Assembly (NCBI GenBank): GCA_035691305.1
Contig: DASSJF010000005.1
Coordinates: 11,380 to 75,379 of the forward strand
Direction: 5' to 3'
From: a bacterium
Lineage (GTDB): Bacteria; Sysuimicrobiota; Sysuimicrobiia; Sysuimicrobiales; Segetimicrobiaceae
DNA length: 64,000 nucleotides
The notes below the pieces were generated by a model, which saw nothing but the letters and a program-made list of their open reading frames with translations, searched no databases and was not told the DNA's origin. Below are positions 6,764 to 27,571 of this stretch, piece after piece. The position numbers were made by a program, and so were the translations under genes. Position 1 is the stretch's first letter. Every line of letters starts with the position of its first letter.

Positions 6764-8485
6764 ATGACCGTCCCGCTCGTCGTTTCAGCGTCGCCTGAGT
6801 ACCTCGCCGCCGTCGCGGAACGGCTCGAGGCGCTGGCCCGTGACCGTTTTGTGCCGCGGCTGTGGACGGGAGATCCCGCGCTCTGGACGGCCGATCCCGC
6901 CGGGCAGGCCGCGGTGCGCGCCGGCCTCGGGTGGCTGCGCGCGCCCGAAGCCATGACGCGGGCGGTCGCCGGCTTGGAACGCTTCCGAGCGGATCTGCGC
7001 GGGGCGGGATACGGGCAGGTGCTGCACATGGGGATGGGCGGCAGCAGCCTCGCGCCGCTCGTCTTCGAGCGGACGTTTCCGGAAGGGCAGGAGCTGCGGC
7101 TCTCGGTGCTCGACACCACGGACCCCGCGACGATCCTGGCCGCGGACCGGTGGGCCGCGCGCGGGTCGACGCTGTTCATCGTGGCCAGCAAGTCCGGCAC
7201 GACCGCCGAGCCGCTCGCCTTCGGCGAGTACTTCTACGCGAAGCGGCAGGCGGCGGCGGGCGATGTCGCGGCGCAGGACTTCGCCGTGATCACGGATGCC
7301 GGCACCCCGCTCGCCGCGCTGGCGGACCGGCGCGGATACCGTCGCGTCTTCACCAACGCAACCGACGTCGGCGGACGCTATTCGGCGTTGACGTACTTCG
7401 GGCTGGTGCCGGCGGCCCTGGCCGGGATCGACGTGAAGGACCTGCTCGACCGCGCCGGGCGGATGGCCGGCGCGTGCGGTCCCGAAGTCCCGCCGGCCCA
7501 GAATCCGGGCGTCCACCTCGGAGCGGTCATGGGAGAGCTCGCGCGGCGCGGCCGCGATAAGGTGACGTTCATCGTCTCGAGATCCGTCGCGACCCTCGGC
7601 ACCTGGCTCGAGCAGCTGCTCGCCGAGAGCACCGGCAAGAACGGGACCGGCCTCCTCCCCGTCGCCGACGAGGCGGTCGGCGGCCCCGACGCGTACGGAT
7701 CGGACCGGCTGTTCGTCGAGGTCCGCCGCCGGGGCGAGACCGGCGGCCCGGTCGAGGATCGGATCCGCGCGCTTCGCAGCGCGATGCACCCGATCGTGAC
7801 CGTCGAAATGGACGACACGCTCGACCTCGGGCAGGAATTCTTCCGGTGGGAGGTCGCGACGGCGACCGCGGGCGCGATCCTCGGCATCAATGCCTTCGAC
7901 CAACCGAACGTGCAGGAAGCCAAGGACATCACGAACCGGCTGCTGGATACGGTGCGGCGCGACGGGCGCCTCCCCGAGCCGGCCCCAACGCATACCGACG
8001 GTCCGCTCGCGCTGTACGCGGCCGGCGCCGGCGGCAGCCTCGCCGGTGCTCTCGCGGAGTTCCTTCGCGGGCGCCGGCCGGGCGACTACATCGCGATCCT
8101 GGCCTACCTCACCGAGTCCCCGGAGACCGAGCGCGGGCTCCAGGCGATCCGCCACCGGCTGCGCGACGCCACGCGCCTCGCAACGACGCTCGGGTACGGA
8201 CCGCGCTACCTCCATTCCACCGGCCAATACCATAAGGGCGGCCCGCCGACGGGCCTCTTCCTACTCCTCACGGCCGACGACGCGCACGACGCCCCGGTGC
8301 CGGCGCAGCCGTACACGTTTGGAGTGTTCAAACGCGCGCAGGCGCTGGGGGACCTCGAGGCGCTGCGCGGGCACGGGCGGCGCGTCATACGGATTCATCT
8401 GCGCGGGCCGGTGGACGCGGCGCTCGCCCGCCTGGAGGACGTGACGGCGGCCGCGCTCGCCGCCGGCGGTTCCAAGGTCACGTGA
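6764..8485 (+). CDS. pgi: glucose-6-phosphate isomerase
   Basis: 573 aa. HMGMGGSSLAP and SKSGTTAEP sugar-isomerase motifs. Directly upstream of zwf and coupled to it. Confidence 0.8.
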   Translation: MTVPLVVSASPEYLAAVAERLEALARDRFVPRLWTGDPALWTADPAGQAAVRAGLGWLRAPEAMTRAVAGLERFRADLRGAGYGQVLHMGMGGSSLAPLVFERTFPEGQELRLSVLDTTDPATILAADRWAARGSTLFIVASKSGTTAEPLAFGEYFYAKRQAAAGDVAAQDFAVITDAGTPLAALADRRGYRRVFTNATDVGGRYSALTYFGLVPAALAGIDVKDLLDRAGRMAGACGPEVPPAQNPGVHLGAVMGELARRGRDKVTFIVSRSVATLGTWLEQLLAESTGKNGTGLLPVADEAVGGPDAYGSDRLFVEVRRRGETGGPVEDRIRALRSAMHPIVTVEMDDTLDLGQEFFRWEVATATAGAILGINAFDQPNVQEAKDITNRLLDTVRRDGRLPEPAPTHTDGPLALYAAGAGGSLAGALAEFLRGRRPGDYIAILAYLTESPETERGLQAIRHRLRDATRLATTLGYGPRYLHSTGQYHKGGPPTGLFLLLTADDAHDAPVPAQPYTFGVFKRAQALGDLEALRGHGRRVIRIHLRGPVDAALARLEDVTAAALAAGGSKVT

Positions 8486-10044
8486 GCCCGGATCGCGCGC
8501 GGCCCGGGGACGCCTCGAACGAGCACGGCAGGAGCGCGCGAACGCGACCGGGTCCCACGACTCTCGTCGTCGTCGGCGCGGGCGGCGACCTCGCCGCGCG
8601 CAAACTGCTGCCGGCGGTCTATAACCTGTCGGTCGACGGATGGCTGCCCGACCGCTTCGCGGTGATCGGCGTCGACCGCCACTTGGCAGGCGACGCCGCG
8701 TTCCGGCGCCATGCCCTCGAGGCCGTCGACCGCTTCTCCCGGCGCGGGAAGACCGACCCGGCGCGCTGGGACGCCCTGGCCGCGTCGCTCCGGTGCCTTC
8801 GCGGGGACCTCTCCACGCACGGAACCGCACGCGCGCTCGCCGCGGCCCTCGCCGAGGCGGAGCGGCAGTCGAACGCGCCCGCGGTGCGCGTCTTCTATCT
8901 CGCCACGCCCCCGTCGGCGGTGGAGTCGATCGTGAAGGCGCTCGGCGCGGCCGGCCTCGCCGGCGATCGGGCGCGGCTCGTGGTGGAGAAACCGTTCGGT
9001 CGGGACCTCGCGTCGGCCCGTGCGCTTGCCGCGGCCATCGGCCGCGTATTTGCCGAGCGGCAGATCTTTCGAATCGATCACTATCTCGGCAAGGAGACGG
9101 TGCAGAACATCCTCGCGCTCCGGTTCGGCAACGCGCTCTACGAGCCGGTGTGGAACCGGCGGTACGTCGACCACGTCGAGATCACCGTCGCCGAGACGGG
9201 CGGCGTCGAGCACCGCGGCGCCTACTACGATCGGGCGGGCGCGCTCCGCGACATGGTACAGAACCACCTCATGCAGATCCTGTGCCTCATCGCGATGGAA
9301 CCGCCGGTGTCGTTCGACGCGGACGAGATCCGGAACAAGAAGACGGACGTGTTGCGCGCGGTGCGGCCGCTCACCGGCGAAATCGAGACGACGGCCGTCC
9401 GCGGCCAGTACGGGCCGGGCACCGTCGCCGGCGGGCCGGTGGCGGGGTATCGGGCGGAACCCGGCATCGTGCCCGACTCGATCACCGAGACGTTCGCGGC
9501 GCTGCGCCTCTTCGTGGACAACTGGCGGTGGAACGGCGTCCCCTTTTATCTCCGCACCGGCAAGCGGCTCGCGGTCAAGGCGACCGAGGCGCTGATCCAG
9601 TTCCAACCGGGACCGCACCTGCCGTTTCCGCCGGACGCCGCCGCCCACTGGCGACCGAATCAACTGGTCGTGCGGATCCAGCCCAACGAGGGCATCGCTC
9701 TGCGGTTTCAGGCGAAGCGGCCGGGCCCCGTGATGCACCTCGACGAGGCGAACATGGATTTCGATTACTGCCGGGAGTTCGGCGGCGAGCCGCCGGAGGC
9801 GTACGAGACGCTGCTGCTCGATGTGATGTGGGACGACCCGACGCTGTTCATGCGCGCCGACCAGATCGAGGCGTCGTGGTCGATCGTCCAGCCGCTCCTC
9901 GACGCGTGGCGGTCGGCACCGGCGGACGGCCTGCCGATGTACGCCGCGGGCACGTGGGGGCCGGACGCCGCCGAGGCGCTCCCCCGGCGCGACGGCAGGA
10001 CGTGGCAGGTACCGAGCGTCGCGGAGCCGGCCCGTGGAGCTTGA
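8482..10044 (+). CDS. zwf: glucose-6-phosphate 1-dehydrogenase
   Basis: 520 aa. GAGGDLAARKLLPAVYNL NADP-binding motif, RIDHYLGKE active-site motif and NHLMQIL. GTG start overlaps the pgi stop (GTGA). Confidence 0.9.
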   Translation: MSPDRARPGDASNEHGRSARTRPGPTTLVVVGAGGDLAARKLLPAVYNLSVDGWLPDRFAVIGVDRHLAGDAAFRRHALEAVDRFSRRGKTDPARWDALAASLRCLRGDLSTHGTARALAAALAEAERQSNAPAVRVFYLATPPSAVESIVKALGAAGLAGDRARLVVEKPFGRDLASARALAAAIGRVFAERQIFRIDHYLGKETVQNILALRFGNALYEPVWNRRYVDHVEITVAETGGVEHRGAYYDRAGALRDMVQNHLMQILCLIAMEPPVSFDADEIRNKKTDVLRAVRPLTGEIETTAVRGQYGPGTVAGGPVAGYRAEPGIVPDSITETFAALRLFVDNWRWNGVPFYLRTGKRLAVKATEALIQFQPGPHLPFPPDAAAHWRPNQLVVRIQPNEGIALRFQAKRPGPVMHLDEANMDFDYCREFGGEPPEAYETLLLDVMWDDPTLFMRADQIEASWSIVQPLLDAWRSAPADGLPMYAAGTWGPDAAEALPRRDGRTWQVPSVAEPARGA

Positions 10045-17861: not shown

Positions 17862-18497
17862 ATGCGGCAGCACGCACCGGGTTGGGCAATCACGACGGCG
17901 GCCGTCCTTGGGTTGTTGAGCTGGGTAACGATGCCCGCTTTGGCCCACGAGCATCGCACAGCGGGAACCGTCGCCATGACGGTAGGATGGGGCGACGAGC
18001 CCGCGTACACCGGTATGAAGAACACGGTGCAGGTTATCCTCGCCGATAAAGCCGGCAAACCGATCGAGGACGTTACCGACACCCTCAAGGTGGAGGTTCG
18101 CTTCGGATCCCAGCTCAGCGGGCCGCTCGACATCGAGCGCGCCTTCGGGCGGACCTTCGGGCGGCCGGGCGACTACCGGGCGCAGATCGTGCCCACCCGG
18201 CCGGGCACCTATTCGTTCCACTTCACCGGTACGGTGGACAACCAGAAGATCGACGAGACGTTTACATCGTCAGACAAGACGTTCGACGATGTCCGGGAGG
18301 CGACCGCGATCGAGTTCCCCGCCAAAGATCCGTCCACGGCGGACCTCAACGGCTTGGTCCAGCGGCTCGGTCCCCGCGTCGGCGAGGCCGCATCGGCTGC
18401 GGGCCGTGCCGTCACCGTCGGGACAATCGGGCTGATCGCCGGCCTTGTGGGCATCGCCGTCGGCCTGGGCGCGATGCGGCGGAAGCGGCCCGGATAA
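17862..18497 (+). CDS. YcnI-like (DUF1775-like) secreted, C-terminally membrane-anchored putative copper-binding protein
   Basis: 211 aa. Signal peptide ending ALA|HEH gives a mature N-terminal His. A C-terminal TM helix is followed by RRKRPG. First gene of an operon with a CopC-CopD fusion. The fold assignment is inferred from architecture and context, not from strong motif identity. Confidence 0.45.
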   Translation: MRQHAPGWAITTAAVLGLLSWVTMPALAHEHRTAGTVAMTVGWGDEPAYTGMKNTVQVILADKAGKPIEDVTDTLKVEVRFGSQLSGPLDIERAFGRTFGRPGDYRAQIVPTRPGTYSFHFTGTVDNQKIDETFTSSDKTFDDVREATAIEFPAKDPSTADLNGLVQRLGPRVGEAASAAGRAVTVGTIGLIAGLVGIAVGLGAMRRKRPG

Positions 18498-18523: not shown

Positions 18524-20491
18524 TTGCGGCCCGCGCCATCCGCACTGCACCGCCTGATCGGCGCGCTCCTCAGCCTGCTCGCGGTGACGTTTCTGTCGCA
18601 CCCCGCGTGGGCCCACGCGCTGCTGCGCCAGTCGGACCCCGTGTCCGGGGCAGTGCTGCGGCGGGCCCCCGGCTTTACGACGCTTACGTTCACCGAGGAG
18701 CCTGAACCGGCGCTTTCGACGATCCAGGTCGTCGACGCGAACGGCCGGACGGTCAGCGGCGCACCGGCGACGCCGGTCTCGGGCAACCCTCTGGTCCTCC
18801 GTGTCCCGGTCCACGCGTCGGGCAACGGCGTCTACACGGTGTCGTGGCGGACGGTCTCCAGGGTCGACGGGCACACCACAGGCGGTACCTTTGCGTTCGG
18901 GGTCGGCGTTTCCGCGGCCGCCGCGGTGCTGCCCGCGTCGGCCGGATCCCCGCCCTCCGCCGCCTCGATTGTGTCGCGCTGGGCCTTCTACCTCGGTCTT
19001 TCCGGCATCATGGGTGCGGCGTGGGTCTGGACGATCGCTGCGCCGGCCGCGGCCACGGGCTCCCTGCGATATGTTTGGCTTTCATGCGCGACGGCGCTTC
19101 TCGCGGTCGCCGGGATCGGTCTCGCGCAGGCGCAGGCCGCCGGCACGGGCATCGGCCGGCTGCTCGCCACGTCGCTCGGCACGTCTCTCGCGCTTCGCGC
19201 CGGGCCCATCCTCCTCGCGGGGCTCGCCCTGGCCGCGGCGGCGCCGCGCCCCTCCGCACGACGGTGGGGGCTGGCGGCCGCGGGCGTGTGCGCCGCGGCC
19301 GCCATGCTGGTTCACGTCACCGCGGGACACGCGGGAGCCACCCTCGGTCCGCTCCGGCCCGTGAACATCGCCGTACAGTGGCTGCACTTCGTCGGCATCA
19401 CCGTTTGGCTGGGGGGACTCGCGGCCCTGCTGGCAATAGGGACCCGTGTGCCGGCCGGTCAGGTCGCGGCGGCGGCGCGGCGATTCTCGACGGTCGCGGG
19501 GATCGCCATTCTCTCGGTGGCCGTCACCGGCGCGCTGCGGGCAATCGACAACGTCGGCGCGTGGGACGCCCTCCTCTCGACGGACTACGGACGCCTCATC
19601 GTCGTCAAGGCGGCGCTTCTGCTCAGTCTGGCCGGCCTCGGCTGGGTGAACCGGTACCGCGCGATCCCGCGCCTGCCGGACACGGCCGGTCTGCTCCGAA
19701 AAGTGGCCGCGATGGAACTCGCGGTCGGCGCGGTCGTGCTGTTGCTGACCGGACTGCTCACGGGCCTCGCGCCGGCACGCCAGGCCGCCGAGGCCGCGGC
19801 CGCCGCCCGACCGCTCACGATCACCGGAAACGACTTCGCCACGTCCGTGCGCGTCCGGCTCGAGATCGCGCCCGGTTTTCCGGGCGCCAACCATTTCACC
19901 CTGCGCGCGGCGGACTACGACACCGGGCGGCCCGTCGCGGCGGACCGCGTCAGCCTGAGCTTCCGAAGTGTCGCGCGCCCCGATCTCGGCGTTTCCACCC
20001 TCGACCTGCGCACCGCGGGCGCCGGGGTGTACACTGGCGACGGCGCGAACCTGTCGCTCGGCGGCCCGTGGACCGTCGCCGCACTCCTGCAGCGCGCCGC
20101 GACCGCGGTGGAAGTGCCGCTCGCTGTCACGCCGAAGGCACGGCCCCAGACTATTCGCGAAATTCGTGCGCCGGGCCAGCCGACGCTGTACACCATCGAC
20201 CTCGGGGGAGGCATCGTGCTCAACTCGTACCTCGATCCCGGCCGGCCGGGATTCAACGAAGTGCACGCGACGTTCATCGCGCCGAACGGCGGGGAACTGC
20301 CCGTACCGCAGTCCATTACCATTCTGGCCGCACGCGCGGGCGGCGCGCGGCAGAGCGTGCCGGTGCGGCGGTTCAGCGCCGGACACTTCATTGGAGATGC
20401 GCAGCTCGGCGCGGGCGGGTGGCGGTTCGAGTTCTACGGCACCGCCCAAGACGGAACGGTGCTCGACGCGCAACTCGACGTCACGCTATGA
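18524..20491 (+). CDS. CopC-CopD fusion copper transport protein with C-terminal YtkA-like domain (YcnJ-like)
   Basis: 655 aa. Signal peptide, then HALLRQSDPVSGAVL...VSWRTVSRVDGHTTGGTFAFGVG, a classic CopC cupredoxin domain with N-terminal His. This is followed by about 8 TM helices of CopD type and a soluble C-terminal domain of about 230 aa. Confidence 0.85.
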   Translation: MRPAPSALHRLIGALLSLLAVTFLSHPAWAHALLRQSDPVSGAVLRRAPGFTTLTFTEEPEPALSTIQVVDANGRTVSGAPATPVSGNPLVLRVPVHASGNGVYTVSWRTVSRVDGHTTGGTFAFGVGVSAAAAVLPASAGSPPSAASIVSRWAFYLGLSGIMGAAWVWTIAAPAAATGSLRYVWLSCATALLAVAGIGLAQAQAAGTGIGRLLATSLGTSLALRAGPILLAGLALAAAAPRPSARRWGLAAAGVCAAAAMLVHVTAGHAGATLGPLRPVNIAVQWLHFVGITVWLGGLAALLAIGTRVPAGQVAAAARRFSTVAGIAILSVAVTGALRAIDNVGAWDALLSTDYGRLIVVKAALLLSLAGLGWVNRYRAIPRLPDTAGLLRKVAAMELAVGAVVLLLTGLLTGLAPARQAAEAAAAARPLTITGNDFATSVRVRLEIAPGFPGANHFTLRAADYDTGRPVAADRVSLSFRSVARPDLGVSTLDLRTAGAGVYTGDGANLSLGGPWTVAALLQRAATAVEVPLAVTPKARPQTIREIRAPGQPTLYTIDLGGGIVLNSYLDPGRPGFNEVHATFIAPNGGELPVPQSITILAARAGGARQSVPVRRFSAGHFIGDAQLGAGGWRFEFYGTAQDGTVLDAQLDVTL

Positions 20492-20892
20492 CGCGGGCGA
20501 TACTCGTCCTGGTCGCAATGTTCGTACTGGCGGCCTGCGGGCCGCGCGCGCAGAACGCCCCGTCCGGCCCGTCCTCGCGGCGCCCGCGCTCCACCGCCAC
20601 GCTGTCCATTCTGAAACCGGCGCCGGGCACGACGGTGTCGAGCAGAAAGCTTGAAGTACAACTGCGGCTGACGGGCGCGACCATCACACCGGAAACCTCG
20701 ACCAATCTGAAGCCCGACCGAGGACATATACACCTGATCCTCGACGGCCGCGTCGTGTCGATGACCTACGGCCTCGATCAGGTCGTCCCGGTGACGGCGG
20801 GCGATCATCTGCTGCAGGCCGAGTTCGTAGCGACGGACCACTTTCCGTTCAATCCGCGCGTCGTGACGAGTGCGACGTTCACCGTCAAGTGA
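20488..20892 (+). CDS. lipoprotein of unknown function with GHIHL motif
   Basis: ATG overlaps the copCD stop (ATGA). MTRAILVLVAMFVLAACG lipobox. 134 aa and beta-rich. The track merges it into an alternate-frame 682-aa artefact. Confidence 0.5.
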   Translation: MTRAILVLVAMFVLAACGPRAQNAPSGPSSRRPRSTATLSILKPAPGTTVSSRKLEVQLRLTGATITPETSTNLKPDRGHIHLILDGRVVSMTYGLDQVVPVTAGDHLLQAEFVATDHFPFNPRVVTSATFTVK

Positions 20893-21661
20893 CCCAGTAA
20901 CAGAGAAACGCCGCGGTGCCGCCGTGCGCGCGGCCGCGGGAGCCGCCGCCGCCGGAATCCTCGGCGCCGGGCTGCTGGTCGCCGCCGCGCTGGGCCGGAC
21001 GGGCCCGACCTGGCTGGCACGAGGTCTTTACGATGGCGTCGTGCCGCTCCCGCCGTACCAGTGGGTGCACCCGCCACGCGAACTGGCGCAGGACAATCGC
21101 CCGCCCCAGCCGAGCCGGGCCACCCGCGACCTGGACGCCTCCGGAAAGTCTCCGGGCGCCGTCGCCACCGGCGACGCCCAGTGCACGGTCATCCTTAACG
21201 ACGGGGCACTCGCCGCGGGGCCCTTCGGCCGGACCGTCACCGTGACGATCACCCCGCTCGATCCCGCCTCGATCGGCCCGCCGCCGCCGGGCATGCGGTT
21301 CGACGGGAACGCCTGCCGGTTCGGGGCCGTCTTGGGACAGAGCGGCGCCGTCCCGCAGTTCAAGCGTCCGGTAACGATCGTGCTGCGATACGCCACCGGC
21401 GGCAGCGGGATCGTTCGGGCGTTGCCCGGCGCGGCGCCGGTCTGGCAGCTCACCCGGTCCGTGCAGTACGCGGGCCACCTGCACCTGCTGGTCGGGGACG
21501 TCACGGCGTTGGGAACGTTCGCACCTGTGGCGCCCGCCGGAACTCCCTACGCGCAGAGGACGCCGTGGCTCGCGTACGTGGCCGTCGCGGGGGCGGTTGC
21601 GGTTTTCGTCGGGCTACTCTGGCTGAGGCGAAAACCGCCGCGCCCGGCAGGCGCCGCCTGA
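20870..21661 (+). CDS. uncharacterised Pro-rich two-TM membrane protein (paralog 1)
   Basis: 263 aa. N-terminal TM helix, a Pro-rich extracytoplasmic domain of about 200 aa (PPYQWVHPPRELAQDNRPPQP ... ITPLDPASIGPPPPGMRFDGNACRF ... RPVTIVLRY), then a C-terminal TM helix and a basic tail. The start may instead be GTG at 20924. Confidence 0.5.
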   Translation: MRRSPSSDPVTEKRRGAAVRAAAGAAAAGILGAGLLVAAALGRTGPTWLARGLYDGVVPLPPYQWVHPPRELAQDNRPPQPSRATRDLDASGKSPGAVATGDAQCTVILNDGALAAGPFGRTVTVTITPLDPASIGPPPPGMRFDGNACRFGAVLGQSGAVPQFKRPVTIVLRYATGGSGIVRALPGAAPVWQLTRSVQYAGHLHLLVGDVTALGTFAPVAPAGTPYAQRTPWLAYVAVAGAVAVFVGLLWLRRKPPRPAGAA

Positions 21662-22654
21662 CAGCAGCTGGTCCGCGGTTCCGCCCAGCACCCGCCGTTC
21701 GTCGTCGGGGCTGATGTGCGCCGCCCGCACCTGGTCGGCCGGGCGCTCCACCCCCATGTCAAACGGATAGTCGGAACCCATCACGACGTGATCGGCGCCG
21801 GCGTACTCGACGAGCTGCCGCAAGAGGGTGACGTCGTGCACGATCGTGTCGTAGTAGAACCGTCGCAGCGATTCGTCCGGCGGCATCTCGAGGCGCGCCC
21901 GCGCGGCCGGAACTTCCTCGTATGCGTGGCGGAGACGGCCCCGCAGCGCGAGCACCGCGCCGCCGCCGTGCGCGAGCACGATGCGGAGGCTGGGGAACGA
22001 CTCCAGCAGTCCGCCCATGACGAGGTCGGCCGCCGTGATCGTGGTCTCGAGCGGGTTGCCGACCGCGTTGCCGAGGTGATGGCGGCTGAACGCCGGATTG
22101 TCGAAGCCCCGCGTCGTCGGATGGATGAACACGACCGATCCGAGCGCGGCCGCGGCCTCCCAGAACGGCCGGAAGCGATCGTCGCCGAGGTAAGCGCCGC
22201 GGACGCTCGCGGCGATCTCGACGCCGGCGAGGCCGAGGTTCGCGACGGCTTCCAGCTCGCGGGCGGCCAGCTCGGGGTCCTGCAGCGGCACCGTCCCGAG
22301 CGCCGCGACGCGCCCCGAATGCGCGCGCACGAGCGAGGCGAGCGCGGCGTTCTGGATGCCGCCCGACTCCAACGCGTCGTGCGGGTCTGCGTCGTAGCGC
22401 AGAAGCCCCACGAACGGACAGAGCACCACCCGATCGCTGCCGGCCGCGGCGGTTTCGGCGAGCAGACCCTCCGGGTTCACGAACTCATGGCGGACCGAAC
22501 GGACCTCCACGCCGCCGATCTCGATGCGCTGCCGGTCGCCGTCTCGCGCAACTGTGGGCCGCCACGGCTCCGGGCCGCGGTCGCGCGTGATCTGCGGGAC
22601 GATGATGTGGACGTGCGCGTCGACGACGGGCGCGTCAGTCCGCCGCGCGGTCAT
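21614..22654 (-). CDS. amidohydrolase-2 family protein (ACMSD-like metal-dependent decarboxylase/hydrolase)
   Basis: 346 aa. VDAHVHI, HPTT, LAHGGG and DYPFD metal-ligand motifs of the TIM-barrel amidohydrolase_2 family. Confidence 0.8.
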   Translation of the reverse strand: MTARRTDAPVVDAHVHIIVPQITRDRGPEPWRPTVARDGDRQRIEIGGVEVRSVRHEFVNPEGLLAETAAAGSDRVVLCPFVGLLRYDADPHDALESGGIQNAALASLVRAHSGRVAALGTVPLQDPELAARELEAVANLGLAGVEIAASVRGAYLGDDRFRPFWEAAAALGSVVFIHPTTRGFDNPAFSRHHLGNAVGNPLETTITAADLVMGGLLESFPSLRIVLAHGGGAVLALRGRLRHAYEEVPAARARLEMPPDESLRRFYYDTIVHDVTLLRQLVEYAGADHVVMGSDYPFDMGVERPADQVRAAHISPDDERRVLGGTADQLLSGGACRARRFSPQPE

Positions 22655-24009
22655 CGGCGGCCGGGCGCGCCTCCGCCCTCGGAGCGCGCGCCGGCGACGA
22701 CCCGCTCGGCCGGAGACGGCGCCGCGGCGCCGCGGTTCATGTTAGACTGCGCCTCGCGCGTCGACTCGAGCGGCCCCGTCGCGGTCCAGTAGCGCGTGCC
22801 GGCGACGAGGAGCTTCTCCGCCGGGAAGCGGGTGATGACCTCGCAGCCGTCCTTGGTCACGACCAACTGCTCCTCGATCCGGGCCGCCGACCAGCCGTCG
22901 GCGGCCGGCCAGAAGGTCTCGAGCGCGAACACCATCCCCTCTTCGATCACCTCGGGGTGGTCCAACGAGACGAGCCGGCTGAAGATCGGCTTCTCCCAGA
23001 TCGAGAGCCCGACGCCGTGGCCGTATTGGAGCGCGAACGCCGCCTCTTCGTCGGCAAACCCGAACTCCTCCGCCTTCGGCCACACGCGAACGACGTCGGC
23101 GGTCGTCACGCCCGGGCGGATCAAGGCGAGCGCCGCGTCGAGGTAGTCGCGGCAGCGGCGGTAGGCGTCGACCATCGCGGGCGAAGCGCTGCCGACGCAG
23201 AACGTCCGGTAGTAGCAGGTCCGGTAGCCGTTGTAGGCGTGGAGGATGTCGAAGTACGCCGGGTCGCCCGGGCGCAGCACGCGGTCGGTGTAGACGTGCG
23301 GATGCGGGCTGCACCGCTCGCCGGAGATCGCGTTCACGCCCTCGACGTGCTCGGAGCCGAGGTCGTAGAGCACCTTCGCGACGAGCCCCACGCATTCGTT
23401 CTCCCGCATTCCGGGCCGGAGCGCCCCGTACAGCTGCTCGTATGCCGCGTCGACCATCATCACCGCGGTCGCGATCAACGTGATCTCGTCGACGGTCTTG
23501 ATCTTGCGGACGTCCTGCATCAGCGTCTGCCCGTCGACGATGCGCAGCCCCTCCGCCTGCAGCGCAAACAGCACCTGGGGTTCGATGATGTCCACGGCCA
23601 GCGGCTGCCGGTGCAGGCCCCTCGCCTCCAACTCGGTGCGGATCTTCTTCGCGACGTCGCGCGCGCTCTCAGGATACGCGCCGCGGAGCGTCGAGATGCC
23701 GGCGCGCGACCGCTCGCCGAGCCACGGGCAGTACAGCCGGTGGTGCCGCGCCGCGGAGCCGAAGTCCCAGAGGATCGGCTCGTCCCCGCGGGGGAGCAGT
23801 GCGAAGCGCACGAGCTTGTCGATCGCCCACGTGCCGATGTGCGTCGCTGTGATGTATCGGATGTTGTTCATATCGAAGCAGAGCAGCGCCCCGCAGTCGG
23901 ACGCGTCGAGGCGGCGCTTGACCCGCGCGAGCCGCTCGGTGCGCAGTCGTTCGTAGTTGACGCGCTCCTCCCAGTCGACCGTCTGCAGGCCGAACGTCTT
24001 AATCCCCAT
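22651..24009 (-). CDS. M24 family metallopeptidase (creatinase/Xaa-Pro aminopeptidase-like)
   Basis: Real start is the internal MGIKTFGLQTVDWEE, ATG at 24009. Creatinase-N domain plus pita-bread fold (HGVGLSIWE, EEGMVFALE). Its stop overlaps the downstream amidohydrolase ATG (ATGA). Confidence 0.8.
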   Translation of the reverse strand: MGIKTFGLQTVDWEERVNYERLRTERLARVKRRLDASDCGALLCFDMNNIRYITATHIGTWAIDKLVRFALLPRGDEPILWDFGSAARHHRLYCPWLGERSRAGISTLRGAYPESARDVAKKIRTELEARGLHRQPLAVDIIEPQVLFALQAEGLRIVDGQTLMQDVRKIKTVDEITLIATAVMMVDAAYEQLYGALRPGMRENECVGLVAKVLYDLGSEHVEGVNAISGERCSPHPHVYTDRVLRPGDPAYFDILHAYNGYRTCYYRTFCVGSASPAMVDAYRRCRDYLDAALALIRPGVTTADVVRVWPKAEEFGFADEEAAFALQYGHGVGLSIWEKPIFSRLVSLDHPEVIEEGMVFALETFWPAADGWSAARIEEQLVVTKDGCEVITRFPAEKLLVAGTRYWTATGPLESTREAQSNMNRGAAAPSPAERVVAGARSEGGGAPGRR

Positions 24010-24946
24010 CGCCGCCCTCCCCGCCGCCCTCCGCCGCCCGCCGGTCTGCGCCGCGCGCCGGCGGGCGCGCCTCCACCCCGGCCATCTCCGCCAGGACGTC
24101 AAACATCGCCGCGAAGTCCTGCTCCGCGAGGCCCATGGCACGCGCCGCGGTCAGCCATTCGTTGGCCACCGCCGTCGTAGGCAGCGGCACGCCGAGCACA
24201 CGGCCCATCTCCGCCGCGAGCACCAAGTCCTTCTGCATCATCGTACAGTCGAACCACGCCTCCGCCGGCATCTCGAGGACGAAGGGCCCGCGGTACTTGA
24301 GCATCGGCGAGGCGATCGCGCTGTTGAGCAGCACGTGGACCGCGGTCTTCCGGGCGATGCCGCCCTTCTCCGCGAGCAGCACCGCTTCGCAGAAGGCCAG
24401 CACCTGCGCGCCGAGATTGAGGTTGGTGGCGACCTTCATCAGCGCCGCTTGGCCGTTCTCGCCGACGTGCGTCACAACCGGGCCGATCGCGAGCAGGACC
24501 GGACGCACCCGCTCGACGACCTCCCGATCGCCGCCGACCATGATCGAGAGTCGGCCTTCCTCCAATGTCACGAGGCTGCCCGAGACCGGCGCGTCGAGCA
24601 TCGCCGCGCCCCGCTCCCGCACCCTCGCGGCGAGCTCGCGGCTGATGCGCGGGCTCACGGTGCTCATGTCGACGTAGACCTTGCCGGGACCCAGGCCGGC
24701 GAGAATGCCGTCGGGTCCCTCGGTGACCGCGCGAAGCGCGCCGGTATCCGTGACCATCGAAAACGTGATCTCCGCCGTGGCGGCGACGGCTCGCGGAGCC
24801 GGCGCGAGCGTGAGACCGGCCTGCTCGAGCCACCGGGCCTTGGCGGCCGTGCGGTTGAAGCCCGTGACCGTGTGGCCCGCGTCCAACAGGCGCTTCGCGA
24901 TGCGGCCGCCCATGGCGCCGAGGCCCACGAATCCGAGGTATGCCAC
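23999..24946 (-). CDS. NAD(P)-dependent 3-hydroxyacid dehydrogenase (3-hydroxyisobutyrate dehydrogenase/MmsB family)
   Basis: 315 aa. GFVGLGAMGG Rossmann motif and catalytic ...SGS...K pattern. Overlaps the M24 start by 11 nt. Confidence 0.8.
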   Translation of the reverse strand: MAYLGFVGLGAMGGRIAKRLLDAGHTVTGFNRTAAKARWLEQAGLTLAPAPRAVAATAEITFSMVTDTGALRAVTEGPDGILAGLGPGKVYVDMSTVSPRISRELAARVRERGAAMLDAPVSGSLVTLEEGRLSIMVGGDREVVERVRPVLLAIGPVVTHVGENGQAALMKVATNLNLGAQVLAFCEAVLLAEKGGIARKTAVHVLLNSAIASPMLKYRGPFVLEMPAEAWFDCTMMQKDLVLAAEMGRVLGVPLPTTAVANEWLTAARAMGLAEQDFAAMFDVLAEMAGVEARPPARGADRRAAEGGGEGGDGD

Positions 24947-24995: not shown

Positions 24996-25538
24996 GTGGT
25001 ATTCCCTTACTCGTTGGACGTCCTCCTACCTCTCGTCGCGGGATTTCTCGGCAGCGCGGCGCTCGCGCTGCGTCCGCCGGCCACCGTCGCCTCGCTTGCG
25101 ATTACCCTCGCGACCGGCGTAATCGGCGGCGCCACACCGGTGCCGCGGGCGCCACGCGGGGACGGCGCGCGGCTGTCGTGGCTCGCCGTGGCGGCAGTCG
25201 GGATCGCGGCCTTCGCCGCGGCCCGCGCGCTGCAGCATCCCCTGGCGCCGAAGATGACGCCGCTCCTCGTCGCCGCGACCGCGGCCGCCGGCGTCGCCGA
25301 AGAATTGCTGTTCCGCCGGCTGCTCTATGGCGCGCTCGCGGTGTACGGCGCCGCGCTCGCCGTCGGCGGATCCGCGGCGGTCTTCGCCGCGGTTCACGTG
25401 CCGGCGTACGGCGTCGCCGCGTTCCCGGTGGATCTCGCGGCCGGCCTCGTCTTCGGATGGCAGCGCTGGGCGTCCGGCACCTGGACGGCCTCGGCCGCCA
25501 CTCATGCCGCCGCAAATCTGATCCAGGCCGCGTGGTGA
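24996..25538 (+). CDS. CPBP family intramembrane metalloprotease (CAAX protease/PrsW-like)
   Basis: About 180 aa. Four TM segments with the EELLFR motif-1 glutamates and the FAAVH motif. GTG 24996 or TTG 25014 start. The upstream part of the 285-aa track ORF is antisense to the dehydrogenase gene. Confidence 0.7.
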   Translation: MVFPYSLDVLLPLVAGFLGSAALALRPPATVASLAITLATGVIGGATPVPRAPRGDGARLSWLAVAAVGIAAFAAARALQHPLAPKMTPLLVAATAAAGVAEELLFRRLLYGALAVYGAALAVGGSAAVFAAVHVPAYGVAAFPVDLAAGLVFGWQRWASGTWTASAATHAAANLIQAAW

Positions 25539-25545
25539 GCGCCCC

Positions 25546-26286
25546 GTGGTAATCATCGGGCGCGCGCGCTTGACGGCCGCGGCGTGGGGAATCGCCGCGG
25601 CCGCCGTGTACCTGGTGGCCGCCCCGCTCGCGTGGCACCACGTCCCGGCGCGGCTGCTCTACGAAGGCGAAGCTCCGCCGGCTCCGTATCACTGGATCGC
25701 CCCGCCGCCCGACCTCGCGCGGGACAACCAGCCGCCGACGGGTGGAACGGGACAGATCGGCCTCAACCCCACCGGCTCCGGATCCGCCTCGATCCTGACC
25801 GACGACGCGCAGGCCGGCATCATCTTCCCGCACGATTCGGTGGCGCCGAGGCCCGGTGTCACCGCCGCAATCGTGCGGATCACGGCGGTCGACCCGGCGA
25901 AGGTCGCGCCGCCGCCCCCCGGCCTCGTCTTCGACGGCAACGCCTACCGCGTGGACGCGGCCTATCAGAATGACGGCGCGATCGTGCTGCGGCGCCCCGT
26001 CACGCCTGTGCTGCGCTATCCCCGGCACGCCACCGTGCTGCTGCGGTGGAGCGACGGGGCGTGGACGGCGCTCGACAGCAAGCGCGTCCCGGCGGCGTTG
26101 CAGATCTTCGCGGCCTCAGACCGCTTGGGGGTGTTCGTGGCGGCCGGCCCGGGGGGCGGCGGGTCATCCCGGGCGGTCTACGCGATCGGGGCGGCGGCCG
26201 CGCTGCTCGCCGCGGCGGCGGTCATCTGGATGATCAGACCGAACCGGCGTAAGGGTACGCGGCGCGGCGACGGTCCGACCGCCTGA
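25546..26286 (+). CDS. uncharacterised Pro-rich two-TM membrane protein (paralog 2)
   Basis: 246 aa. Same architecture and collinear motifs as 20870..21661 (APYHWIAPPPDLARDNQPPTG, ITAVDPAKVAPPPPGLVFDGNAYRV, RPVTPVLRY). Begins 8 nt after the CPBP stop. Confidence 0.5.
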   Translation: MVIIGRARLTAAAWGIAAAAVYLVAAPLAWHHVPARLLYEGEAPPAPYHWIAPPPDLARDNQPPTGGTGQIGLNPTGSGSASILTDDAQAGIIFPHDSVAPRPGVTAAIVRITAVDPAKVAPPPPGLVFDGNAYRVDAAYQNDGAIVLRRPVTPVLRYPRHATVLLRWSDGAWTALDSKRVPAALQIFAASDRLGVFVAAGPGGGGSSRAVYAIGAAAALLAAAAVIWMIRPNRRKGTRRGDGPTA

Positions 26287-26290
26287 ACCG

Positions 26291-27571
26291 TCAGCTCCCG
26301 GCGACGAGGAGATCCTCGGGGAGCCCGGCGGTCACGTGTTCGCGCCCGGTCTCGGTCAAGAGGAATGTGTGGCCGTAGAAGAGCCCGAGCAGTCCGTCCG
26401 GCGTGATGGGGTTCGGCTCGAGCATCAGCTCCATGCCCGGCCGCATCACCCGATCGGCCGGCTCGGCGTGCACGCCGTCGACGCGCACGTCCGGATGGTG
26501 GCTCGTGAGATCGATCCCGTGCATCACGATCGGCCGCGACTGGTAGCCGCGCTCGCGGAAGACCGCCGTCTTCCGCTGCATCGCCTCGAAGGTGTTGCCC
26601 GGCCGCAGCTCCTCTGCGAGCAGATCGAACCCCGGGCGCACCACCTCGTCCCACATCGCCCGCACGCGGTCGGTCGGCCGGCCGACGCAGATCGGGATCC
26701 CGATCTGCGCGGTGTAGCCCTCGTAGCCTGCGGCGAGCTCGTTCAGGATAAGATCGCCCGGACGGAGCCGCCGCCCCGACGGCCGCGGATTGCCGAAGAC
26801 CATGCTCGGCGCGTCCATCGGCGTGCTGCCGATGATGAGGAAATCGAGTTCGCCGCCGCCGGCGAGGATCGCCGACGCGGCGGCCGCTTTCAGTTCGTAC
26901 TCGGCGACGCCTGGCCGCGCCGCGGCGCGGACGGCGCGCAGCGCCGCGACGCAGAGCGCGCCGGCCCGGCGGACGCGCGTCTGTTCTTCCGTGCTCTTCA
27001 CGACGAGCAACTCGTGAAAGAAGTCGCCTACCAGCTCGAGCCGGGCGTCCGGCAGCTCCGCGGCCAGACGCCGGTATTGGTTGTACGGCAGGTAATCGCC
27101 GTATCGCGGATCGATCACCGCGATGCCGATCCGGCCACCGGCGTGTCCCCGCTCCTTCGCCACGGCCGCCAGCGCCTCGCCGAACTGGCCGCCCGGCGCC
27201 GGACGCACGTCGCGCACGGCGACCGCGCGGCGCGTCGCTTCGATGTGCGTGCCGCCCATCCCGTACACGAGCGCCGGCTCGCCCTCGCGCGGCACGTAGA
27301 GATAGACCGAGAGCGCGTGCCATTCGCGGTGATTGCTGAGCCAGAAGACCCCGGCGCCGTAGCTCCAGTGGTTGGGCCCGCCGCAGGCGATGAGCCCGTC
27401 GAGAGCGAGGCGAGCCATCTTGTCGCGGGTCGCGGCGAGGCGGCGCGCGTGCTCCGCGTCGGAGAACCGCTCGTACACCGCGTCGGCGTAGTACGGCGTG
27501 CCCGTGAGGCGGCCGAAGTTCGCGCCGCTGTCGAGGGCGCCGCGCGCCGATTCGAAGTCGCGGGATGACAC
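26291..27571 (-). CDS. M24 family metallopeptidase (creatinase/prolidase-like), second copy
   Basis: 426 aa. Creatinase-N-like N-terminus and M24 core (DFLIIGSTP, GYEGYTAQIGIP, HGIDL). Confidence 0.8.
   Translation of the reverse strand: MSSRDFESARGALDSGANFGRLTGTPYYADAVYERFSDAEHARRLAATRDKMARLALDGLIACGGPNHWSYGAGVFWLSNHREWHALSVYLYVPREGEPALVYGMGGTHIEATRRAVAVRDVRPAPGGQFGEALAAVAKERGHAGGRIGIAVIDPRYGDYLPYNQYRRLAAELPDARLELVGDFFHELLVVKSTEEQTRVRRAGALCVAALRAVRAAARPGVAEYELKAAAASAILAGGGELDFLIIGSTPMDAPSMVFGNPRPSGRRLRPGDLILNELAAGYEGYTAQIGIPICVGRPTDRVRAMWDEVVRPGFDLLAEELRPGNTFEAMQRKTAVFRERGYQSRPIVMHGIDLTSHHPDVRVDGVHAEPADRVMRPGMELMLEPNPITPDGLLGLFYGHTFLLTETGREHVTAGLPEDLLVAGS

Follow-up and report, generated by a model that had tools for sequence, protein, structure and literature searches.

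The 64,000-nucleotide stretch of bacterial DNA analysed here (contig DASSJF010000005.1, assembly GCA_035691305.1; hereafter the window) encodes two paralogous membrane proteins, A and B, belonging to a large unannotated family, for which we use the name FAM, that is almost always encoded with one intact subfamily of the CPBP glutamic intramembrane proteases. The FAM-CPBP partnership is well supported as a conserved gene pair: the two genes, FAM and one for a small, catalytically intact CPBP, make up the core of a module that regularly ends with FAM, and this pair is often extended by two lipoprotein genes, one for a type-I periplasmic-binding protein (Peripla_BP_6; PBP) lying between the two and one for a DUF4399-like protein in front. 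The module is most often joined to a YcnJ-type operon encoding a CopC-CopD fusion (CopCD), and sometimes to an Nramp or a multicopper oxidase gene. We see about an even chance that FAM is a dedicated partner of the CPBP protease, serving as an adaptor or gate at the duplicated end of a metal-uptake module.

A and B are genuine genes and true paralogues

B occupies positions 25546..26286 of the plus strand (246 aa, GTG start), and A lies on the same strand at 20870..21661 (263 aa, or 245 aa from GTG 20924). The start of A is ambiguous: the GTG at 20870 overlaps the gene for the DUF4399-like protein by 23 nt, and the GTG at 20924 gives the 245-aa form that is called in a 98%-identical sibling of A (P0121). 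As reported in the initial annotation of this DNA, B follows tightly behind a CPBP gene. We measure a spacer of 7 nt between the CPBP stop codon, a TGA whose last base is 25538, and the GTG with which B opens at 25546, and B is probably translationally coupled to that gene.

The same annotation had proposed that A and B are paralogous, each with N- and C-terminal transmembrane helices and a basic tail, and our comparisons bear this out. BLASTP with compositional adjustment aligned 168 aa of the two proteins at 38% identity and 51% positives (E=3e-29), and both contain two hydrophobic segments (residues 18-44 and 231-254 in A, 7-30 and 208-232 in B) with basic tails after them, in agreement with hydropathy and, for B, with an AlphaFold2 (AF2) model. 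The motifs that had been quoted as common to the two proteins proved to be family-wide invariants (PPxPYxW..PP, T.D.Q, DP, DGNAYR, LRY, W and LG.F). Low complexity fails to explain the match, because the alignment spans the entire ectodomain, beyond the Pro-rich stretch, and proline makes up ~11% of A and B alike. The GC content of 71% in the genome (~71% in the window) and the many spurious long open reading frames speak for a purely compositional (Pro/Ala-rich, high-GC) likeness between sequences that are spurious as genes or as paralogues. The initial annotation had itself named low-complexity similarity as a refuting outcome, but the composition-adjusted E-value, hundreds of homologues with conserved columns, a predicted local distance difference test score (pLDDT) above 90 over the domain and conserved synteny refute this explanation and leave it a negligible probability. 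A and B are thus genuine genes and true paralogues.

FAM is a large family from uncultured bacteria

A family profile searched against 1.84 billion cluster representatives retrieved 1,415 clusters (at 50% identity) with E<=1e-3, of which 1,011 also reach E<=1e-10. The named matches come from uncultured Actinomycetota (including Acidimicrobiia), Dormibacterota, 'Bacillati bacterium ANGP1' and unclassified 'bacterium' entries, and every one of them is a 'hypothetical protein' from an uncultured metagenome-assembled genome. Neither A nor B matched Pfam (at E<=0.01 or at E<=10) or NCBIfam, a distant family member likewise had no Pfam match, and searches of PDB sequences with the single protein and with the family profile returned nothing beyond noise. 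A literature search found no paper on the family, and the earlier description of it as uncharacterised holds.

An alignment of 25 diverse members contains invariant columns (B numbering) at G41, P44, Y48, P53, P54, P64, T85, D87, Q89, D116 and P117, followed by G131, N132, R135, L156, W173 and G195. The family alignment has no conserved His, Cys or Met column, the exception being a lineage-specific Cys pair in A; the lack of such columns argues against direct metal binding, which we set aside, and for a protein-binding role. A role as anti-sigma factor was also set aside, since FAM reaches into the cytoplasm with nothing more than short basic stubs and has no sigma-factor gene as a consistent neighbour.

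Variation in copy number occurs within the family as well. P0161 carries two tandem FAM domains between one N-terminal and one C-terminal transmembrane helix, and two adjacent FAM genes stand behind one CPBP gene at L018 (3324-4842) and L070 (8001-9505; the second gene was recognised at an hhalign probability of 99.1%).

The partner is an intact CPBP protease of a distinct subfamily

The gene in front of B (24996..25538, plus strand) encodes a small, 180-aa glutamic intramembrane protease of the CPBP (Rce1-like) family, which matches PF02517 with E=1.7e-13 and 51.1 bits against a gathering cut-off of 22.4, confirming the CAAX-protease-like identity assigned to it in the initial annotation. All three catalytic motifs are intact, namely EELLFR (EExxxR), FAAVH (FxxxH) and HAAAN (HxxxN), and 45 of 45 full-length FAM-linked CPBPs retain EExxxR, FxxxH and HxxxN/D. 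The window protein also contains the subfamily motif GWQRWASG.W, and a GWQRW-type motif is common to the 45 linked proteins. In NCBIfam the window CPBP has sub-threshold matches alone, to MrtJ, MrtS and myxosortase models; its best Mrt matches lie below the cut-offs (MrtJ, 30 bits against 75; MrtS, 22 bits against 130), as does that of the L010 CPBP (MrtS, 41 bits). Scores of ~30-41 bits thus stand far below cut-offs of 75-435. Judged by these scores, the protease belongs to the CPBP family but to none of the curated Mrt subfamilies.

The FAM-CPBP pair is conserved across phyla

Gene neighbourhoods were compared in 65 loci obtained from peptide-pattern scans of species-representative genomes and JGI metagenomes. 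Genes were called as stop-to-stop open reading frames refined by hidden Markov model (HMM) envelopes, and neighbours were called by phmmer and iterated HMMs built from the window proteins; divergent CPBPs missed by phmmer at L059 and L061 were found by eye and HMM. Upstream genes were counted for 68 informative, non-redundant FAM genes, on the same strand and within 250 nt, usually at -15 to +33 nt. CPBP is directly upstream in 27 of the 68 and a PBP lipoprotein (PF13458) in another 27; where PBP adjoins FAM, CPBP normally precedes it. A DUF4399-like lipoprotein takes this place in 5 of 68, with one more case at 544 nt; in 2 the neighbour is a tandem FAM copy, and the remaining 7, which we call orphans, have none of these. 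Upstream sequence of at least 5 kb was available for 33 FAM genes; 24 of these have CPBP no more than 3 kb away, and 20 have CopCD no more than 8 kb away. The association with CPBP and copper genes seen in the window recurs elsewhere.

Eight further contexts were found by exact-protein lookup, independently of DNA patterns, and in all eight CPBP stands within two genes of FAM, commonly with 4-nt start/stop overlaps. The gene orders are CopC, CopCD, a 153-aa protein, CPBP, PBP, FAM at L066/L067; CopCD, a protein of ~135 aa, CPBP, PBP, FAM at L074 and L075, with 4-nt overlaps; DUF4399, CPBP, PBP, FAM at L071; CPBP, FAM at L069; CPBP, FAM, FAM at L070; DtxR, Nramp, CPBP, FAM at L073; and, at L072, CopCD, further genes, DUF4399-like, FAM, a 362-aa protein, CPBP, PBP, FAM. 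CopCD is present in 4 of the 8. The CPBP-FAM link is kept across at least three phyla, down to ~26-35% identity of FAM to B.

Three side observations concern the surroundings of FAM. In several loci of Actinomycetota type, a protein of ~362 aa without a Pfam match is encoded directly downstream of FAM (L072 at 7720-8808, L048, L047, L050, L054, L057 and L005), and the module may include this protein as well. Downstream of orphan FAM genes at L035 (8903-12250) and L041 (1394-2560) lies a gene for a secreted LVIVD-repeat beta-propeller protein. At L035, a VapBC-like toxin-antitoxin pair is found just upstream of the orphan FAM on the opposite strand.

The metal genes beside the pair are frequently but not only copper genes

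The copper link suggested by the window is only partly general: CopCD is a frequent neighbour, but other metal genes can take its place or be missing. At two Dormibacterota-like loci, L073 (4423-7720) and L061 (4365-8631), CPBP-FAM stands right behind genes for a DtxR-family repressor and the metal transporter Nramp, not CopCD. The divergent CPBP-FAM pair of L059 (3715-10642) is immediately preceded by a gene for a protein of ~1,740 aa, secreted or membrane-bound, in which a multicopper-oxidase domain was recognised (PF07732, 29 bits). In Acidimicrobiia (L010-L015), CopCD and DUF4399 give way to a lipoprotein weakly similar to cupredoxin-type proteins (CoxB/NosZ) and to a polytopic membrane protein of 456 aa; at L010 (6196-8003; also L012, L013 and L015) the lipoprotein has 146 aa, the 456-aa protein has no family match, and CPBP-PBP-FAM comes next. 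L069 and L070 carry CPBP-FAM with no metal gene nearby.

These loci bear on an alternative that we consider unlikely, in which CPBP-(PBP)-FAM is a general envelope or lipoprotein-handling module that has no mechanistic tie to copper and is co-located with CopCD in some lineages. In its favour are the pairs without CopCD (L069, L070, L071 and the acidimicrobial L010-L015) or beside Nramp (L061 and L073), the two lipoprotein genes that flank CPBP in the full operon, and the lack of conserved metal ligands in FAM. One possible form of it, by analogy, is that the module acts on the lipoproteins encoded next to it, for which there is a precedent in the CPBP-like protein LnsB that acts in lipoprotein N-acylation (PMC7387801); LnsB, however, is without the catalytic motifs, which FAM-linked CPBPs keep. 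Against the alternative as a whole, CopCD accompanies FAM in most of the well-flanked loci and in half of the protein-sampled contexts, and where CopCD is replaced, its place is taken by Nramp with DtxR, by the multicopper-oxidase-domain protein or by the weakly cupredoxin-like lipoprotein.

The N-terminal membrane helix is better conserved than the C-terminal one

Among 232 FAM proteins with the core motif, 174 have both transmembrane helices and 30 more have the C-terminal segment only. The tail behind the C-terminal helix has a median of 11 residues, with ~4-5 basic and no acidic ones. Several clades stop directly after the last beta-strand, without a C-terminal helix, and overall the N-terminal helix is the better conserved of the two; a Tyr in its middle (Tyr22 of B) is invariant in the B-type, ANGP1 A-type, orphan, Actinomycetota and Dormibacterota groups.

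The main competitor of the adaptor reading is that FAM is the substrate of CPBP, its C-terminal helix and basic tail being a sorting signal that is removed so that the ectodomain is released or re-anchored, in a manner akin to the CAAX processing carried out by Rce1. Sorting of C-terminal signals by a CPBP protease has a precedent in myxosortase, for which PMC11980579 describes experimental evidence. The likeness of FAM-CPBP to myxosortase/MYXO-CTERM, MrtJ/JDVT-CTERM and MrtS/Synerg-CTERM lies in a small intact glutamic protease encoded one-to-one with an exported, membrane-anchored protein whose C-terminal end is usually formed by a transmembrane helix and a basic (Arg/Lys-rich) cluster, and the best, though weak, NCBIfam matches of the CPBPs are to the sorting proteases MrtJ and MrtS. 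Of the tripartite signal of the Mrt-type systems, FAM mostly has the helix and the basic cluster but no signature motif or invariant Cys ahead of them, just a loose P-x-G, and the CPBP scores fall far below every Mrt model cut-off. The C-terminal helix is also dispensable: clades that lack it (P0097-P0107, L066/L067) keep the full CopCD-CPBP-PBP-FAM operon, which weakens the case for cleavage of a C-terminal anchor. Finally, sorting-signal substrates have no need of a conserved N-terminal helix, the more conserved of the two in FAM. Weighing these points, we think it unlikely that FAM is the substrate.

FAM is predicted to expose a ZU5/GAIN-like beta-sandwich

The AF2 model of B, computed with the family alignment as input, has a mean pLDDT of 88.7, with 92-98 over residues 51-200, and comprises a transmembrane helix (residues 3-30), an extended conserved segment, a beta-sandwich (67-202), a short linker and a second transmembrane helix (208-230). 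On the plus strand of the window, the N-terminal helix with Tyr22 maps to 25564..25635 (residues 7-30 from hydropathy, the AF2 helix and conservation), the extended motif (LY.G..PP.PY.W..PP...N..P) and the ectodomain after it to 25651..26151 (residues 36-202), and the C-terminal helix with its basic cytoplasmic tail, placed by AF2 and hydropathy, to 26167..26283 (residues 208-246). In a comparison of predicted structure, the ectodomain shares its three-dimensional fold with the ZU5, GAIN and FIIND domains. FAM is accordingly predicted to be an extracytoplasmic ZU5/GAIN-like beta-sandwich anchored by an N-terminal helix and usually by a C-terminal helix too, and by the positive-inside rule its topology would be N-in, ectodomain out and C-in. 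The initial annotation had seen B as a Pro-rich protein with two transmembrane helices; the helices stand, but that description undersells the confidently modelled ectodomain.

Compared with ZU5 (ankyrin, UNC5), subdomain B of GAIN (adhesion G-protein-coupled receptors) and FIIND (NLRP1/CARD8), FAM differs in being bacterial and extracytoplasmic, in carrying an extra conserved N-terminal extension (PPxPYxW..PP), in showing no detectable sequence similarity (ZU5, GPS and GAIN sequence models gave no match even at E<=10) and in lacking the conserved autoproteolytic triad. Only some ZU5/GAIN members self-cleave. A more speculative idea, which we hold to be very unlikely, is that FAM is a prokaryotic extracytoplasmic counterpart of ZU5/GAIN that is cut or gated in trans by its CPBP instead of cutting itself, with docking of PBP on the ectodomain in control; soil Terrabacteria would then possess a hitherto unknown device for signalling or maturation at the cell surface, linked to their metal uptake.

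Less probable still is self-cleavage by FAM in the manner of ZU5/GAIN, in which a membrane-proximal cut would leave a tethered fragment, as in adhesion G-protein-coupled receptors and the FIIND of NLRP1/CARD8. The predicted fold would suit it, and the C-terminal helix in the B model begins within ~6 residues of the last beta-strand, much as GAIN is followed by TM1; the turn x-L-G-x-F before that strand is, we assume, in register with the GAIN cleavage pattern H-L↓T-x-F. That turn, however, carries an invariant Gly with no conserved Ser/Thr/Cys nucleophile or His, no conserved pair of His and Ser/Thr/Cys equivalent to an autoproteolytic site (HFS in ZU5-UPA, HL↓T/S in GAIN) exists in FAM, and neither A nor many of the distant members have the H-A-T that B carries in 'RHAT'. 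Because the nucleophile is absent, self-cleavage is highly improbable.

FAM as a candidate adaptor of the protease

In the reading that we favour, FAM would be a membrane protein dedicated to the CPBP enzyme as its partner. Within the membrane it would dock on the protease by way of its conserved N-terminal helix, which holds the invariant Tyr; outside, its ectodomain, whose ZU5-like fold is of a protein-binding kind, would engage the lipoproteins (PBP, DUF4399-like) or another exported client. FAM would thereby offer substrates to the protease, or control their access to it, for cleavage on the external side of the membrane while metal-acquisition proteins are assembled or turned over. The invariant Tyr and the protein-binding fold both fit an adaptor or gate, and a role in regulated proteolysis or maturation, already hinted at in the initial annotation, appears plausible. 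BofA/SpoIVFA with SpoIVFB, and APH-1 in gamma-secretase, offer a likeness in that a small membrane protein, encoded together with the protease or acting alongside it, could gate or present substrates through a transmembrane segment; they differ in protease family and partner fold. That FAM would be an adaptor rather than a substrate is our inference, and so would be any role specific to copper.

Several points weigh against this reading. Gene adjacency shows a functional link but not its direction, and the loci behind the counts are interrelated and were partly fetched through conserved-peptide patterns, so that the counts overstate the number of independent events. Orphan FAM genes without CPBP nearby make up 7 of the 68. 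Many CPBP-FAM loci, such as L010 and L069-L071, are without CopCD, so a role confined to copper cannot hold for the family in general. The likeness to ZU5/GAIN is structural only, at 10-15% identity, and is drawn from a predicted structure.

The window carries a split and duplicated module

A single-strand order of CopCD, DUF4399-like, CPBP, PBP and FAM is found in single-copy genomes (L005, L007-L009, L017, L065, L066, L074 and L075), and the ancestral order was likely (YcnI-position gene)-CopCD-DUF4399-like-CPBP-PBP-FAM. The window is a split, duplicated form of this module, in which CopCD-DUF4399-like-A and CPBP-B are the halves of one ancestral operon. In a neighbour-joining tree of all FAM copies, window A and B fall in two sister clades, each with members of the ANGP1 lineage; in ANGP1, PBP precedes the A-type FAM within the CopCD operon, and CPBP precedes the B-type FAM. 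With ANGP1 members in both clades, the duplication and the operon split predate the divergence of the window and ANGP1 lineages. Two proposals of the initial annotation change accordingly: the family was indeed duplicated, but not recently, and the neighbours of A and B are as described, but they are not independent wirings to copper uptake and to a protease, since single-copy synteny makes them two halves of one module. Each half retained its own FAM copy after the split, in the window and ANGP1 lineages alike, and this speaks for FAM acting together with components from both of them. No PBP homologue is present anywhere in the 64-kb window, indicating that PBP was lost from the cluster in the window lineage.

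Column-by-column comparison shows that B retains every family-wide invariant, while A of the window lineage (6 of 6 sequences) is altered in the N-terminal transmembrane Tyr, the second Pro of APP.PY and the P-R-H-A-T segment. The Tyr is replaced by Leu (the helix of A lies at 20924-21000, that of B at 25564-25635). In the same six sequences, Cys stands at the near-invariant Ala90 and at Tyr134 of DGNAYR (B numbering). These are the only cysteines of A, C105 (21182-21184) and C149 (21314-21316), and B has none. The concerted replacement of two conserved positions suggests that the residues are spatially close, and with them the copy kept with CopCD may have acquired a disulfide or a thiol-based (metal) site. 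Going by these residues, A is the derived copy, possibly with a new function, and B, termed the second copy in the initial annotation, is the ancestral-like one.

The copper half and flanking genes

The first gene of the copper half (17862..18497, plus strand) encodes a secreted 211-aa protein that occupies the position of YcnI. It has a signal peptide with a predicted mature N-terminal His (..ALA↓HEH) and a C-terminal transmembrane segment followed by RRKRPG, and homologues lie upstream of CopCD at L002, L005, L009, L017, L021-L023, L026 and L045. YcnI is a DUF1775 Cu(II) protein with a mature N-terminal His and a C-terminal membrane anchor (PMC8424229); the 211-aa protein is YcnI-like in position and architecture only, with no match to DUF1775 at E<=10 and none to other Pfam, NCBIfam or PDB sequences. 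Next comes the CopC-CopD fusion (18524..20491, plus strand, 655 aa; PF04234 E=1.9e-18, PF05425 E=3.6e-19), which has the architecture of a YcnJ-like copper importer, and then the DUF4399-like lipoprotein of 134 aa (20488..20892, plus strand), with lipobox LAAC and a GHIHL motif. The latter matches PF14347 at E=6.2e-5 with 23.7 bits, under the 28-bit cut-off, and a PDB sequence search with it gave no useful match; its homologues sit between CopCD and CPBP, PBP or FAM in most loci.

This half resembles ycnKJI of Bacillus subtilis, where YcnJ is a CopC-CopD protein, in that CopC-CopD is preceded by a secreted, C-terminally anchored protein with a mature N-terminal His. It differs in the missing DUF1775 match, in having no YcnK repressor in the window operon, and in the extension of operons of this type by DUF4399-like, CPBP, (PBP) and FAM genes. 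The YcnI and YcnJ papers found by our literature search do not mention DUF4399-like, CPBP, PBP or FAM genes as neighbours, the search found no paper linking CPBP with YcnI, CopD or CopCD, and none of the DUF4399 papers found concerns copper.

Three minus-strand genes separate the two halves, encoding an amidohydrolase_2 protein, an M24 peptidase and a HIBADH-like dehydrogenase; together with a flanking gene, the minus-strand set comprises amidohydrolase_2, two M24/creatinase-like peptidases and the HIBADH-like dehydrogenase (21614-24946 and 26291-27571). At ANGP1 loci, a HIBADH-M24 pair instead follows the B-type FAM, a displacement which indicates that the region was rearranged around a conserved set of neighbours. 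A scan for promoters and terminators returned 0 promoter-like sites, and terminator-like sites at chance level.

Implications for metal acquisition in uncultured bacteria

What is new here is the FAM family and, with it, a putatively dedicated protease and partner module accessory to a known metal-uptake operon; the CPBP family and YcnJ-like CopC-CopD proteins were known. Although CPBP proteases abound in bacteria, a substrate or partner is known for very few of them, and FAM-CPBP provides a concrete, testable pair. It is also of structural and evolutionary interest that a bacterial protein is predicted to display a ZU5/GAIN-like fold on the external side of the membrane. The FAM-CPBP-metal operon belongs to uncultured soil bacteria, and many YcnJ/CopCD operons of uncultured Actinomycetota, Dormibacterota and ANGP1-like bacteria carry three to four extra conserved envelope genes, which suggests that there are undescribed steps in metal acquisition or cuproprotein maturation.

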